Assembly (NCBI GenBank): GCA_963729835.1 | Contig: CAVSQF010000023.1 | Location: 155,739 to 219,738 of the forward strand | DNA length: 64,000 nucleotides | Source: an uncultured delta proteobacterium | GTDB taxonomy: Bacteria > Desulfobacterota > Binatia > HRBIN30 | Reading direction: 5' to 3' | Shown: positions 9,433-14,060 of the stretch, piece after piece | Position numbering within the stretch: the stretch's first letter is position 1 | Layout: each line of letters begins with the position of its first letter | Position numbers and translations under genes: made by a program | Notes under the pieces: model-generated | Databases searched by the model: none | The model's input: the letters and a program-made list of their open reading frames with translations, nothing else | Told to the model about the DNA's origin: nothing

Positions 9433-9660
9433 TCATCGCCCGAGCTTCTGGTGCACGCGCGCCTTGACCAACCGCACGAAATGCTCAATCCGCTCGAATT
9501 CGTCGAGCTCTGCGCGTTCCTCCGCGCTCAGCGCCTGGTCGCAGTGCCTCGCGAGGAGCGTCTCGATGCGCGCTTGCATCGCCGCCGGTGGGTAGAAGGC
9601 AAGGAAGCGTTGCGCGATGGCGGGTGTGGCAAACACATCCAACAGCTCGTCGTACGCCAT
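9433..9660 (-). CDS. Small hypothetical protein, antitoxin-like helical protein
   Basis: 76 codons from MAYDELL. The C-terminal LSAEERAELDEFERIEHFVRLVKARV resembles small proteins often found next to TA toxins. Recognition is weak. Confidence 0.4.
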   Translation of the reverse strand: MAYDELLDVFATPAIAQRFLAFYPPAAMQARIETLLARHCDQALSAEERAELDEFERIEHFVRLVKARVHQKLGR

Positions 9661-9814
9661 CGCTTGATTTCTAGCACAGTCGAGTGCCGGCGACCAGAAG
9701 ATCGGCGCGCCGGACTGCTGGTGCACGGGCGAAGTGGGAGCGGCCGATCGAGCCTGCGAGCCGGCGGCGAACGTGCGCTTGCGTCGCTGTCGGCTCTTGC
9801 AGTACGCTGTATCT

Positions 9815-10060
9815 ATGACCGCACACGGGCGGCTGGACCGAATCACGGTTGACCCAAACGTCATGCAAGGGCAAGCGTGCCTTCGGGGCTTGCGCATTCC
9901 AGTTCGGCTGGTTCTCAAGCTCTTGGCTTGCGGCAAGACCCCCGAGCAGATCCTGGCGGACTATCCCGAACTCGAGCGCGAGGATATCAGCCAGTGTGTG
10001 GCGTACGCTGCGTGGCTGGCTTGCGAACACACCTTGCAGATCCACGCCGGCGGCACGTGA
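9815..10060 (+). CDS. DUF433 domain protein (antitoxin-like HTH); no partner gene follows
   Basis: RITVDPNVMQGQACLRGLRIPVRLVLKLLACGKTPEQILADYPELEREDISQCVAYAAW is the DUF433 pattern. Confidence 0.75.
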   Translation: MTAHGRLDRITVDPNVMQGQACLRGLRIPVRLVLKLLACGKTPEQILADYPELEREDISQCVAYAAWLACEHTLQIHAGGT

Positions 10061-10227: not shown

Positions 10228-10269
10228 TGCGCCTCCGAGTGAAAGTCCTGCGCCTCCGAGTGAAAGTCC
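10228..10269 (+). repeat. Perfect tandem duplication of a 21-nt unit
   Basis: TGCGCCTCCGAGTGAAAGTCC occurs twice, head to tail. Confidence 0.9.
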
Positions 10270-10298: not shown

Positions 10299-10882
10299 TC
10301 ATGACTGGAGCTCTTTCAACGCGGACACGATCAGAGCCGTGCGTGCCCTCGATAACTCCTCGAAGGAATCAAAGCCGTAATCTGGAAGATGGGGAATCAG
10401 GTGTCGCTTGCGGAAGGCCGGATCTCGTGTGCGAATCCACTCATCGAATATGTCAGCTCTTCGGGATCGTCCTCATTGGGTACGGGTCGCTTCAGCAGGT
10501 CCAGGTAGAGTCGGGTCTTTCGCCAGCGATAGTAGAAGTAGCGGTAGGAACCCCCCAGACCGATGAAGAGCGACGAGATTCGTTGCTGGCCGTCCAAGAC
10601 GAGGGTGATGTCCCTCATGATTCCAGCCATGCTCGCGAGCGGGTTGTGCGGAGACTCACGATCGAAGTCTCGAATGAACTGGTAGACCGGCCACTCGTCC
10701 TTGTTCTTCTGCTCCAATCGCCAGTATAGGAAGGTGCCGATCGGGAAGTCGGCCATGATCGAGTCGAACAGACGCTCAATGCGGTCGGTGCCCCACACCA
10801 GCTCCCGCTGAATGGCCGGAAGGTAGATATCTCGGTTGACCTGCCGGATGATGTCGCTGACTCGAACTGGGATGTATTCCAT
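10299..10882 (-). pseudogene. DUF262 (GmrSD N-terminal, ParB-like) gene, truncated and frameshifted
   Basis: LPAIQRELVW and LDGQQRIS motifs are present, but the ORF stops after 161 aa (10397). A shifted frame continues as PAFRKRHLIPHLPDYGFDSFEELSRARTALIVSALKELQS to a stop at about 10299. Full-length relatives are much longer and carry a DUF1524/HNH-like half. Confidence 0.7.
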
Positions 10883-10897
10883 ACAGGGCCTTCTTGC

Positions 10898-11035
10898 CTA
10901 ACGCCCGGCCCAACCTACGGGCGCTCCGGCGGCCGCCAGGTTTAGGCCACTCTTATTCCCCTGTGACTCGCGAAACGCGCGCTTGTAGGCGGACCAGTCG
11001 AAATTCGGACATACCGTCTCCGGGGCAAATCTCCC
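10898..11035 (-). pseudogene. 3' portion of the IS-interrupted cyclase-homology-like ORF
   Basis: The frame ...GR FAPETVCPNFDWSAYKRAFRESQGNKSGLNLAAAGAPVGWAGR* continues in phase from 12499 once the IS and one target-duplication copy are removed. Confidence 0.7.
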
Positions 11036-12498
11036 GGTAATGTCGGGAGTGTGGTGGAAAAAGGGGAAAGGCGTCATCATCCGGCCAGTTTCTTAACCCA
11101 AGAACAACTCCCGCGTAGCAGCGGGGGTCAGAGGATGACGCCATGGTAACAGATAGCAGGAAGGACGGACGACGGGAAACGAAAGCGGAGAGGTACGGCC
11201 CAGAGAGCATTGAACTCGGGATCCGAGAACGCGTGCGTGACGTGATCGAACGAATTGTCGAAGAGGAGGTGGAAGCGGCTCTGGGAGCCCAGCCCTCGGA
11301 GCGAGTGGGCGCTGAGCGCCACGGCTACCGTCACGGGCACCGAGAACGGAGCCTGACCACGAGCGTGGGAGCGACGACCATTGCGATGCCCCGGGCGCGA
11401 TTGCAGGAGGCGGATGGGAGCAGTAGGGAGTGGCAGAGTCGCACGGTGCGGCGCTACGAGCGGCGTACCAAGCGAGTGGACGAGGCCATCCTCGGAGTCT
11501 ACCTGAGCGGGATAAACACGCGGCGGATCAAGGGCGCGCTGGCCCCGTTGCTGCGCGGCGGCCCACTGTCGAAGGACGCGGTATCACGCTTGGTGGGGCG
11601 GTTGGCCGCCGACTTCAAGACGTGGCGCGAACGGGACCTGGCCCAGGACGATATTCGCTATCTGTTCCTGGATGGCTGGTACCCGAAAGTGCGCCTCGGA
11701 AGACGGCGGGTGAGGGTGCCGGTGCTCGTGACGCTCGGTGTGCGGGGCAATGGGCAGCGGGTGCTGCTCGACATGCAGTTGGCGGGCGACGAGAGCTCGG
11801 CGGCCTGGAGCGGCGTCATGGAGGGTCTCGTGCGGCGCCACATCGGGACCCCGGCGCTGGCGGTGATCGACGGCAACCCGGGGTTGGTGACCGCCCTGCA
11901 CGAGCAATGGCCGGGGCTGCCGATCCAGCGCTGCACCGTGCACAAGTTGCGGAACCTCGAGGCCAAAGCCCCCGCGCATCTGCGCGAGGAACTTGCCGAG
12001 GACTACCGCCGGATGATCTACGGGAAGGACCGCGAAGCGATTGATACGGCACGCGCCGCGTTCCGCAAGAAGTGGCAGCGGTGTTGTCCCAACGTCGTGA
12101 CGAGCCTGGAGGAGGCCGGAGAGGACCTGTTCACCTTTACCGCCTTCCCCCCCTCCCAGTGGAAGGCGCTGCGCACCAGCAACGCGCTGGAGCGCATCAA
12201 CGGCGAGTTTCGTCGCCGCACGAAGACGCAGGCGAGCCTGCCCAGTCAGGACGCCGTGCTTTTGCTGCTCTTCGGTCTGCTGCACAGCGGGCGCATCACG
12301 CTGCGACGTCTGGACGGGTGGAAGGACATGCCTGCGGCGCCGGCGCGGGAAGTACCTAAACGGCACTCTCATCATACTACTAATACATACTCTTGTACAT
12401 CTACTGATAAGAAAGCTGCATAAGAGAGGAGCAGTGGTTCATTGTTTAGCCGCCGAATGAACGCTCGATCGTTTTTCCACCACTTGACCGACACCACC
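11036..12498 (+). mobile_element. IS256-family insertion sequence, 1463 bp, with an 8-bp target site duplication
   Basis: Terminal inverted repeats GGTAATGTCGGGAGTGTGGTGGAAAAA (11036-11062) and the reverse complement of 12472-12498, GGTGGTGTCGGTCAAGTGGTGGAAAAA, match at 21 of 27 positions. The direct repeat AATCTCCC lies at 11028-11035 and 12499-12506. A single transposase ORF is inside. Confidence 0.9.
11143..12423 (+). CDS. IS256-family (Mutator-type) transposase
   Basis: DEAILGVYLSGINTRRIKGAL, IRYLFLDGWY, VLVTLGVRGNGQR, AVIDGNPGL, QRCTVHKLRNL and FPPSQWKALRTSNALERINGEFRRRTK are hallmark IS256 transposase blocks. Confidence 0.92.
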   Translation: MVTDSRKDGRRETKAERYGPESIELGIRERVRDVIERIVEEEVEAALGAQPSERVGAERHGYRHGHRERSLTTSVGATTIAMPRARLQEADGSSREWQSRTVRRYERRTKRVDEAILGVYLSGINTRRIKGALAPLLRGGPLSKDAVSRLVGRLAADFKTWRERDLAQDDIRYLFLDGWYPKVRLGRRRVRVPVLVTLGVRGNGQRVLLDMQLAGDESSAAWSGVMEGLVRRHIGTPALAVIDGNPGLVTALHEQWPGLPIQRCTVHKLRNLEAKAPAHLREELAEDYRRMIYGKDREAIDTARAAFRKKWQRCCPNVVTSLEEAGEDLFTFTAFPPSQWKALRTSNALERINGEFRRRTKTQASLPSQDAVLLLLFGLLHSGRITLRRLDGWKDMPAAPAREVPKRHSHHTTNTYSCTSTDKKAA

Positions 12499-13196
12499 AA
12501 TCTCCCTACCTCCAATCCCTGCAGCAACTGGGGGTAGCGCTGACGAAGGAGCTCCCATGTTGATAGGTACTTCATCCTGATAGCCGGCTCGGGGTGCCGC
12601 ATCTGCTCGTAAACGTCATAAAGGTACTGAAGGTCCCACAGGAGATCGGTGAATTCCTCCTCCAGTGGCGGCGCGGGAAGCATGCCGCCAGTGAGCCGCT
12701 GCAACCGCTCCAACGGTTGGTTGAGGTAGACAAAACTGACACCGCTGTCGTAGGGCGTCGTTGGAAAAATCTTATTGTACCCGTTGCAGATATCATCCAT
12801 AAAGAGGCCGACGGCCTGGATAGCTCTTTCGCGGCGATAGGCGTCAACCAGTGCCCTTCCGTAGAAGGACTCTACGTGTGCCCTCCGGCGATGCGCGAAC
12901 GGCCCGTACGTCAGAAATGCCCTGAAGTAAATGTTGCTGCCCACCAGCCGATACTGCAAGTCCTGAGCGAACTCGCAGGAGTACATCACGAGGTAGCTAT
13001 GGTCCTCCGGCGAGCGCGGGTCTGCTTTGTTGTAGACCACGATGGTGTCAGAGAATACCAGAGTGGTGAAGGCCTCGTGCTGGTGGACGTTGAGTGTATC
13101 GATCACATCGTAGAGACGCTCGATCTTCAAGGGATGGTTCTCGACTAGGTCGGAGAAGCCGAGGATGTCGATATAGAGCAGAAATCGGTCACTCAA
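12499..13196 (-). pseudogene. 5' portion (233 codons) of an ORF with class III nucleotidyl-cyclase-like motifs, interrupted by the IS256 element
   Basis: TTG 13196 lies 5 nt after AGGGAGA. Motifs appear in cyclase order: LLYIDILGFSDLV, LVFSDTIVVY, FRAFLTYGPF, FYGRALVDAYRRE. The track ORF 12372..13346 is a chimera whose last 42 codons are IS-encoded. Confidence 0.6.
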
Positions 13197-13377: not shown

Positions 13378-13785
13378 TCAGACGGTCCAGTCGGCCGTCG
13401 TCAGCCCCTCCACCGAACCGAAGTCGCTATCACGGGTCACCAGGGTGGCGCCGAGGACCGTAGCCGTGGCAGCAATCCAGAGATCGTTTTCATCCAACGC
13501 GAGGCCTTGCTGCTCGCGAGAGCGTTTGATCTTCGCGTAGGCGTCTCCGGCGGACTCGGGTATGGACTCGCAGGCAATGCTGGCGAAGAGCGGCACGGTC
13601 TGCTTCGTCAGACTCTCGCGCCGACGGCCTTGTGGCAGACGGGCGAGCCCGTAGACGATTTCGCCCGGAACGATTGGGCAGATCACCAGCTTGTCACTGG
13701 CAGTGAGCGCGGCAAGCCGCTGTTCAACCCGCGGGTGCTTGCGCATGAGGTCGGAGAATGCGGTTGAATCGAGGAGGAAGATCAT
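13378..13785 (-). CDS. vapC: VapC-family PIN-domain toxin
   Basis: MIFLLDSTAF ... PGEIVYG ... ENDLWIAATATVLGATLVTRDSDF carries the PIN acidic residues. It overlaps the upstream antitoxin by 4 nt. Confidence 0.85.
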   Translation of the reverse strand: MIFLLDSTAFSDLMRKHPRVEQRLAALTASDKLVICPIVPGEIVYGLARLPQGRRRESLTKQTVPLFASIACESIPESAGDAYAKIKRSREQQGLALDENDLWIAATATVLGATLVTRDSDFGSVEGLTTADWTV

Positions 13786-14060
13786 TTCCCCGTTCCACGC
13801 AGGTCAGTATCGAACAACCCGTGGGAGCCTGTCGGCAGTTTGCCTCCCTCGATCATGCGCTCCAATTCGTCGACGTCGCCCGCTTTGAGAGCCGGCAGGG
13901 CACGCATCGCCTGCAGGACCGCCAATGGCGATCCCACGGCCGCTTCCTGCACCGGTCGAATGGTCACCTCGACTGCACCGCGAATCCCAGACAACGGCTC
14001 ATCGAGCTCGATGTGGCTCGGATCATTCAGTTTTCCGCGAACGACGACGGCTGGTTCCAT
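13782..14060 (-). CDS. VapB-like antitoxin partner of the adjacent PIN toxin
   Basis: A 92-aa ORF that overlaps the vapC start. Assignment rests on position and size rather than on a recognised fold. Confidence 0.6.
   Translation of the reverse strand: MEPAVVVRGKLNDPSHIELDEPLSGIRGAVEVTIRPVQEAAVGSPLAVLQAMRALPALKAGDVDELERMIEGGKLPTGSHGLFDTDLRGTGK

Follow-up and report, generated by a model that had tools for sequence, protein, structure and literature searches.

Comparison with described systems

Pycsar systems couple a class III-type cyclase-fold gene (PycC) with PycTM or PycTIR in defense islands, and their defining feature is a neighboring effector whose domains include one that binds cyclic nucleotides (PMC11224242). 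In the cyclic-oligonucleotide-based antiphage signaling system (CBASS), the corresponding component is a CD-NTase (cGAS/DncV-like, with the Pol-beta fold). By contrast, BrxU, a GmrSD-like enzyme that targets modified DNA, carries DUF262 and DUF1524 in one polypeptide and was tested as a single-gene candidate; the tested HEC-05 representative is 99.2% identical to it, hence the notation "HEC-05 (BrxU)", and genes of this type are often embedded beside other defense systems in the same orientation (bioRxiv 10.1101/2024.01.29.577857). Here, we consider a locus at positions 10299-13196 of a 64,000-nucleotide stretch of contig CAVSQF010000023.1 from an uncultured delta proteobacterium (hereafter, the window), where a gene encoding a class III cyclase-like protein, split by an insertion sequence (IS) of the IS256 family, precedes the remnant of a DUF262 gene. 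A first-pass annotation of the locus had read the two genes as a cassette with Pycsar/CBASS-like logic. We consider it probable that they are two separate, now dead island genes lying side by side, rather than a functional pair.

The cyclase-like protein belongs to a family that shares with Pycsar a class III-type cyclase-fold gene found in defense islands, and EaPycC (PDB 8JSF) is among its structural matches. Unlike Pycsar, the family has no conserved neighbor, DUF262 is not an effector of the Pycsar type, and the neighbor in the window is a GmrSD remnant. CBASS does not fit either: the fold is the palm of class III cyclases and not the Pol-beta fold of a CD-NTase, and PADLOC gave no match. 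The DUF262 domain of BrxU-type enzymes is a ParB-like NTPase that binds and hydrolyzes nucleoside triphosphates (NTPs), and we know of no role for DUF262 as a cyclic-nucleotide sensor.

Neighborhood survey of the two genes

We surveyed ∼75 loci with the cyclase-like gene: 65 species-level genome loci (one genome per species), seven viral or proviral loci from IMG/VR, and several metagenomic loci. None of these had an adjoining DUF262 gene. Among the ±3 genes around the 65 genome loci there was no conserved neighbor, the largest shared cluster being transposases at three loci, and no conserved small open reading frame (ORF) was seen near family members. In the opposite direction, the cyclase-like gene was absent from all ten loci that carry close relatives of the DUF262 gene (identity 72-90%, with lower values in the wider list of matches). 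Searches of the cyclase-like loci with the window DUF262 fragment or its full-length relative L068 (phmmer, tblastn) yielded no match, these searches being insensitive; a hidden Markov model built from BrxU-like N-termini also yielded none, but its positive control failed, the model being too narrow. A scan for the DGQQR motif was more productive. It revealed real, non-adjacent DUF262 genes in two loci (L033 and L083/L084). Within the 65 genome loci it found one real GmrSD-type gene, of the HEC-06 type, in Pseudomonas cerasi, where it is the second gene downstream from the family member. The seven viral or proviral loci showed no DUF262 neighbor.

The two genes also have different evolutionary neighbors. 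Close relatives of the DUF262 fragment, at 80-90% identity, occur in other places and without the cyclase-like gene, whereas the nearest relative of the latter reaches just 55% identity; this points to their separate acquisition. Taken with the survey, in which homologues of the two genes were never adjacent, this suggests that the proposed two-gene signaling system is not real and that the pairing is coincidental.

Several observations weigh against this conclusion. The two window genes are co-oriented and 15 nt apart with no promoter detected between them, and were probably co-transcribed at this locus. GmrSD-type genes do occur in the wider neighborhood of two other family members, the non-adjacent cases found by the motif scan. 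Moreover, a fusion protein of the Bacillus cereus group shows that DUF262-like and cyclase-like domains are able to cooperate in one lineage at least. Finally, we only infer the enzymatic activity and the defense role of the family.

The lineage in question came up in a search of plasmid proteins, which matched a gene of Bacillus wiedmannii that carries a DUF262 annotation (438 aa; plasmid p536, NZ_CP036072.1 158452-159768, here L078:5419-6735). Its N-terminus is DUF262-like (GmrSD_N, E-value 8.7e-7, below the Pfam threshold), with DGFHR in place of DGQQR. Its C-terminus is homologous to the cyclase-like domain of the family (hhalign probability 97%, E-value 7.8e-11, ∼25% identity); the fusion (WP_215559167.1 and relatives) shares with the family the motifs LDILGF, SD, R-G-A, and G-K-A-L-V-E-A-Y-K-K-E. 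The cyclase-like domain occupies the place where GmrSD enzymes carry the HNH nuclease, which suggests that it can replace the nuclease as an output module. The fusion is kept in several strains of the B. cereus group and was the only one of its kind in the collections of plasmids and phages. Proteins related to its N-terminal half are annotated as HNH endonucleases or DUF262 proteins, and those related to its C-terminal half are solo. It differs from the window genes in that it joins both domains in one polypeptide and in reverse order, lacks the C-terminal helical domain of the family, has a DUF262 part that is not of the BrxU type, and is seen only in the B. cereus group.

If the two window genes did form a system, the cyclase-like protein would make a nucleotide signal sensed by the adjoining DUF262/GmrSD nuclease, and the locus would be a new, decayed Pycsar/CBASS-like pair. 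The co-oriented 15-nt spacing with a Shine-Dalgarno sequence, the cyclase-type fold with its intact metal dyad, and the conservation of the B. cereus-group fusion would all fit such a system. However, the neighborhood survey largely refutes it, as adjacency was found neither in the family loci nor in the DUF262 loci. The separate evolutionary neighbors of the two genes, the ParB-like NTPase character of DUF262, and the distance of the fusion, with its low identity, altered motif, and reversed domain order, speak against it as well. BrxU/HEC-05 is, moreover, active as a single gene (bioRxiv 10.1101/2024.01.29.577857). We therefore regard such a system as very improbable. The fusion keeps alive a small probability that the cyclase-like gene was functionally coupled to the DUF262 gene, which we put at well under one in ten, and it does not rescue the window cassette. 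The broader version, in which the family would be a new nucleotide-producing or NTP-consuming defense module with DUF262-type DNA sensors among its natural partners, as in the B. cereus-group fusion, and the window pair a split and decayed form of it, seems to us equally improbable.

Under the preferred explanation of two independent genes, the upstream one would have encoded a divalent-metal-dependent, NTP-using enzyme, either a cyclase or a related nucleotidyl transferase. Its family-specific helical domain may regulate activity or complete the active site, and the protein would function as a self-contained module whose most likely role is in conflicts with phages or mobile elements. The downstream gene formerly encoded a type IV restriction enzyme of the BrxU/HEC-05 type, which acts alone against modified phage DNA. 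The 15-nt spacing would then reflect tight packing of independently acquired defense genes in a ∼4.7-kb cluster that also holds VapBC and a DUF433 gene. An IS256-family insertion in the upstream gene and a 1,130-nt internal deletion in the downstream one later inactivated them.

As the locus is dead, a decayed part of a defense island, and the two-gene system does not appear to be real, nothing follows directly from the window. Its lasting value is that of a pointer to an unannotated cyclase-fold family which Pfam, NCBIfam, and the 2023 PADLOC library do not see.

Reconstruction of the upstream gene

The insertion sequence occupies positions 11036-12498 (plus strand, 1,463 bp) and consists of a transposase ORF and terminal inverted repeats. 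It is flanked by two identical copies of the 8-bp target-site duplication AATCTCCC, the left one at 11028-11035 and the right one at 12499-12506. The transposase ORF (11143-12423, plus strand, 426 aa) matches the Pfam domain Transposase_mut with an E-value of 6.4e-73, and the terminal inverted repeats are imperfect, matching at 21 of the first 27 positions. Because 8-bp direct repeats, imperfect inverted repeats, and a Mutator-type transposase are together the hallmarks of the IS256 family, the insertion belongs to this family. Like its other members, the element is ∼1.46 kb long and has a Mutator-type DDE transposase; we noted no unusual feature in it. It is present once within the window.

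Removal of the element and one copy of the repeat joins the minus-strand segments 13196->12499 and 11027->10898 into an ORF of 828 nt, that is, 275 codons and a TAG stop. The 5' part of the cyclase-like gene (12499-13196, minus strand) contains codons 1-232 plus 2 nt and starts with TTG at 13196, with a GGGAGA Shine-Dalgarno sequence 5 nt upstream; alignments with homologues open at the same start (MSDRF/MxxKYLLYIDILGF). The 3' part (10898-11027, minus strand), displaced by the insertion, contains codons 233-275 and the TAG. A tblastn search with residues 230-275 places this 3' part at 11038-10901. Because the 43 residues past the junction align with homologues, including the invariant F233 and the near-invariant W244, we take the rebuilt ORF to be genuine and not a chance one.

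The TAG of the cyclase-like gene lies at 10900-10898 and the ATG of the DUF262 gene at 10882. The 15-nt spacer between them (10883-10897, minus strand) contains a GAAGG motif 6 nt upstream of the ATG. Hence, the excision described in the first-pass annotation is reproduced from the sequence in all its elements, namely the junction, the 8-bp repeats, the spacing of the stop and start codons, and the GAAGG motif, and the cyclase-like motifs quoted there are all present. A seemingly intact homologue with 90% identity (P0001) was rejected, as it proved to be the IS-truncated ORF of the window itself.

The downstream BrxU/HEC-05-type remnant

The ORF of the DUF262 gene (10397-10882, minus strand, 161 codons) comprises 145 N-terminal residues of a BrxU/HEC-05-type GmrSD protein followed by 16 out-of-frame codons. 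It matches Pfam GmrSD_N (E-value 3.3e-19), PADLOC HEC-05 (6.1e-49), and the BrxU structure PDB 7P9K (1.7e-22), and contains the DUF262 motifs RLFDS (in the context IERLFDS) and DGQQR (LDGQQR). Among full-length relatives, L068 (566 codons) is the closest, at 85% identity.

The first-pass annotation described this gene as a 161-aa fragment with a frameshifted tail. The fragment stands; the frameshift does not account for the full lesion, since comparison with L068 shows an internal deletion of 1,130 nt. In a blastn alignment, window positions 10882->10449 correspond to nt 1-434 of L068 (codons 1-145), and positions 10441->10315, with a change of frame, to nt 1565-1691 (codons 522-564). The deletion junction thus lies at 10441-10449 (minus strand), and codons 146-521, including the DUF1524/HNH motif, are lost. 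The deletion takes the linker and the HNH nuclease motif, DHIFP, which is present in L068, and shifts the frame. The last ∼50 codons remain as a 3' remnant (10299-10466, minus strand) that does not share the frame of the N-terminal fragment, ends with TGA, and is 66% identical to L068 residues 514-566 (tblastn).

The first 145 residues of the window gene therefore match BrxU/HEC-05 (7P9K), complete with the two DUF262 motifs. The window copy differs in that, lacking codons 146-521, it cannot encode the nuclease domain, and it is best described as a remnant of a type IV restriction enzyme of this type, not a functional member. That both genes are dead here, as had been proposed, is thus borne out, the first being split by the insertion and the second having lost its internal part.

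All retrieved close relatives of the window BrxU-like gene are disrupted too. In L068-L071, originating from four JGI samples, an in-frame TAG replaces the Trp codon of QLWY (the gene being at L068:5164-6864); L074 and L075 have apparent frameshifts; the L072 gene is truncated beside IS3 fragments; and in L076 and L077 the gene is replaced after approximately residue 165 by a DUF2326/CTD10 gene. Among the 120 best matches, none was a full-length protein. Some of these disruptions may be long-read assembly errors; otherwise, the clade may have been inactivated recurrently.

Fold and active site of the cyclase-like protein

Class III cyclase domains (cyclase homology domain, PF00211; e.g., Rv1625c, CyaC, Cya2) are the closest described relatives of the upstream protein, and we compared the two by structure and by residue. 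The AlphaFold2 model of the 275-aa protein, built from a 104-sequence alignment, has a predicted local distance difference test score (pLDDT) of 93.2 and a predicted template-modeling (TM) score of 0.90. All top 50 Foldseek matches in PDB were class III adenylyl or guanylyl cyclase domains (probability 1.0, E-values 2e-7 to 8e-6), with target-normalized TM scores of 0.53-0.69 (for chains that are stand-alone cyclase domains) over ∼180 columns, in which identity was 13-21%. A second model, made independently for a family member of 391 aa (pLDDT 87), again retrieved class III cyclases, with 8JSF, the Pycsar cytidylate cyclase EaPycC, at rank 32. In the BFVD library of viral structures, four of the six matches at E-value ≤0.001 were named cyclase-type proteins. 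We also considered the GGDEF, Cas10/mCpol, and reverse-transcriptase palms as the closest fold and rejected them; GGDEF appeared only at an E-value of 0.2 in BFVD, and no such match was among the top 50 in PDB.

The N-terminal ∼155 residues form the class III cyclase catalytic fold, with its beta-alpha-alpha-beta-beta-alpha-beta core, and residues 160-256 a helical domain specific to the family. In the hhalign register with Rv1625c, whose query sequence we checked to be identical to PDB 4P2X/7YZ9, D10 corresponds to D256, D50 to D300, L46 to K296, R92 to the Arg of LRVGL, and G98 to the Gly of TGP. Residue conservation was counted in the columns of the 104-sequence family alignment, where overall identity is ∼40%. 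Both metal-binding aspartates are invariant (D10 of IDILGFS in 103/103 sequences, D50 of FSDT in 104/104), as are S49 and G113 (104/104 each), and R92 on strand 4 is present in 103/104. In the helical domain, R207 is found in 99 and W244 in 102 of the 104 sequences, and K209 and F233 are invariant. By contrast, the position of the canonical Asn is Ile or Val in 96/104 and Asn in 1/104, the position of the canonical Arg is Arg in 22/104, and the position of the base-specifying Lys (L46) is Ile or Leu in 99/104; in class III cyclases, Lys/Asp select ATP and Glu/Cys select GTP. The Asn and Arg positions were set by the motif register from G113 and the predicted secondary structure, as the hhalign alignment stopped short of helix 4.

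Hence, the family shares with class III cyclase domains the fold, the strand-1 motif F-x-D-x-x-G-F-[ST] with the first metal Asp, the second metal Asp in the strand 2-3 hairpin, the Arg opening strand 4, and the Gly before helix 4. It lacks the Asn and Arg of the G-x-x-V-N-x-A-x-R motif, in place of which it has G-x-A-L-[IV]-x-A-Y-x-x-E-K; its base-specifying position is hydrophobic; it has a unique C-terminal helical domain and no sensor or transmembrane domains; and PF00211 does not detect it. The metal dyad and the phosphate-binding elements are thus kept, and the transition-state pair and the base-specifying Lys are lost.

The fold assignment to the class III nucleotidyl cyclase domain is almost certainly right. 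The structural comparison and the conserved aspartates, D10 and D50, agree with the first-pass annotation, which had called the upstream ORF class III cyclase-like and named structure and profile searches as the check. Its motif assignment held for the metal-binding aspartates and failed for G-x-x-V-N-x-A-x-R. We regard the protein as a divergent member of the cyclase-homology-domain fold, for which "cyclase-like" is correct as a statement on the fold; with two defining features missing, it falls outside the canonical class III cyclase enzyme family.

The profile evidence is less favorable to cyclase homology. The hhalign match of the family profile to the Rv1625c catalytic domain is marginal (E-value 3.2e-4, probability 39%), and the match to a 28-sequence cyclase profile is weaker (E-value 0.036), as the cyclases retrieved for that profile are all 70-90% identical. 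None of the 104 family members matches PF00211 (Guanylate_cyc) or GGDEF even at E-value ≤10, and the evidence for homology from sequence profiles is weak on its own.

These features raise the question of whether the domain is a pseudo-enzyme, that is, a regulator or scaffold that binds a nucleotide or ligand and has kept the fold but lost the cyclase chemistry. The replacement of the Asn by Ile or Val, the poor conservation of its partner Arg, the Leu or Ile at the adenine/guanine-specifying position, and the lack of a Pfam cyclase signal in all 104 members would be expected of such a protein. Still, both metal aspartates, the GFS loop, and R92 are maintained across phyla at ∼40% identity, a pattern typical of retained catalysis, and the palm enzymes GGDEF and Cas10/mCpol perform nucleotidyl transfer without the Asn/Arg pair. 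We consider a pseudo-enzyme unlikely, with about one chance in five, and lean slightly towards the cyclase-like protein being a putatively active enzyme.

Distribution and context of the cyclase-like family

A word-indexed search with the cyclase-like protein returned 235 matches, mostly of 250-290 aa, all unnamed or "hypothetical" and none with a Pfam domain. An exhaustive profile search, which covered 1.84 billion representatives, yielded 1,002 clusters (at 50% identity) with E-value ≤1e-3, 301 with E-value ≤1e-10, and 148 with E-value ≤1e-30. Scans of the 275-aa protein against Pfam, NCBIfam, and PADLOC gave no match at E-value ≤1, and a Pfam scan of the 104 members at E-value ≤10 gave scattered noise only. 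A profile search of PDB sequences produced only chance matches to methane monooxygenase gamma at an E-value of ∼0.4. We found no prior description of the family or of a cyclase-DUF262 pairing in a limited search of the literature; the PADLOC library is dated 2023 and could miss a newer description.

In the one-genome-per-species scan, family members occurred in Pseudomonas, Bacteroidota, Acidobacteriota, Planctomycetota, Nitrospira, Bacillota, Verrucomicrobiota, and other taxa. Cultured carriers include several Pseudomonas species, among them P. atacamensis and P. cerasi, as well as Desulfofarcimen acetoxidans DSM 771, Pedobacter, and Arcicella rosea DSM 21163. Judging by these searches, this is a genuine uncharacterized family of ∼260-aa proteins, with ∼1,000 clusters at 50% identity in many bacterial phyla.

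Some members are longer. P0058, P0067, and their relatives (∼390 aa) have a C-terminal module of ∼125 aa with a predicted beta-alpha-beta-beta-alpha-beta order and a conserved PCGG...LDVD motif, and P0278 and P0281 (∼430 aa) have an unrelated C-terminal module of ∼170 aa. Neither extension has a Pfam match, and in the Foldseek search with the long model, matches to the cyclase domain prevailed.

The immediate neighbors of family members include Gabija GajA/OLD, AbiJ/Abi_C, HsdR, ResIII, and Eco57I-type enzymes, methylases, and integrases. The three closest relatives are found, respectively, with a Piwi/prokaryotic Argonaute (pAgo) gene, with a TIR gene, and in an island that holds HNH and, on the opposite strand at a distance of 3.4 kb, a GmrSD gene. 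One of the two closest relatives adjoins the Piwi-domain gene and a gene for a 292-aa partner (L080:2814-5659), and the other adjoins a CAP12-PCTIR TIR-domain gene, 50 nt upstream (L082:553-1224). Defense genes are thus often nearby, and pairing with DUF262 is not seen. The family behaves as a solo gene of defense islands and mobile regions.

Family members could also be genes of phages or mobile elements serving the element itself, by anti-defense or by manipulation of host signaling, rather than the host. Integrases and transposases are often neighbors, seven loci are in IMG/VR viral or proviral contigs, and the N-domain shows a weak but consistent match to the PHROGs phage family phrog_23933. 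Nevertheless, those seven loci come from 2.9 million viral contigs, and most contexts are chromosomal islands rich in defense genes, so we hold an element-serving role to be improbable, albeit less so than coupling to DUF262. That the family is a defense gene is plausible, and we rate the chance as just short of even.

All five family members tested match phrog_23933, a family of unknown function, with E-values from 6e-5 to 9e-11, so distant relatives of the cyclase-like domain exist in phage genomes. Another distant relative is a solo gene on a Methylobacter plasmid (NZ_CP091425.1; L079:4971-5771). A gene annotated as the RNA-guided endonuclease IscB (L079:2076-3365) is found 1.6 kb upstream of it, and it stands between IS3 and IS630 transposases.

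Overall, the family combines an intact metal dyad with the loss of canonical transition-state residues, and it is solo, often standing beside pAgo, TIR, Gabija/OLD, Abi, or restriction genes. Surveys for Pycsar began from recognizable cyclic nucleoside monophosphate cyclases and hence would have missed it. If its members are indeed active enzymes with a role in phage defense, this would be a case of a signal-type catalytic domain that has no effector gene dedicated to it.

Genomic setting of the locus

The cyclase-like gene is directly preceded by a VapBC pair spanning 13378-14060. The VapC PIN toxin (13378-13785, minus strand) matches the Pfam PIN domain with an E-value of 5.5e-18, and the VapB-like ORF (13782-14060, minus strand, 92 aa) overlaps the VapC gene. 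A scan for sigma70-like promoters gave a single match in the region, upstream of vapB at 14121-14093. The accessory stretch occupies approximately 9.4-14.1 kb of the window (∼4.7 kb) and is set among housekeeping genes; a rhamnosidase and a SnoaL-like gene border it at one end, and citrate synthase borders it at the opposite end. Its guanine-cytosine content is 0.57-0.60, compared to 0.64-0.70 in the flanks. The two genes thus lie beside VapBC inside an accessory island, as first described.

A perfect 21-bp tandem duplication (TGCGCCTCCGAGTGAAAGTCC x2) is located at 10228-10269, ∼30 nt downstream of the stop codon of the GmrSD remnant (10301-10299). The duplicated sequence occurs nowhere else in the window, with 0 matches expected by chance. 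Further along, we observed a DUF433 antitoxin-type ORF (9734-10060, plus strand, E-value 2.3e-23) with no recognizable toxin partner downstream, and an antisense ORF of 167 aa (9433-9936, minus strand) that overlaps it and has no family match. This region may be another decayed toxin-antitoxin module of the island.

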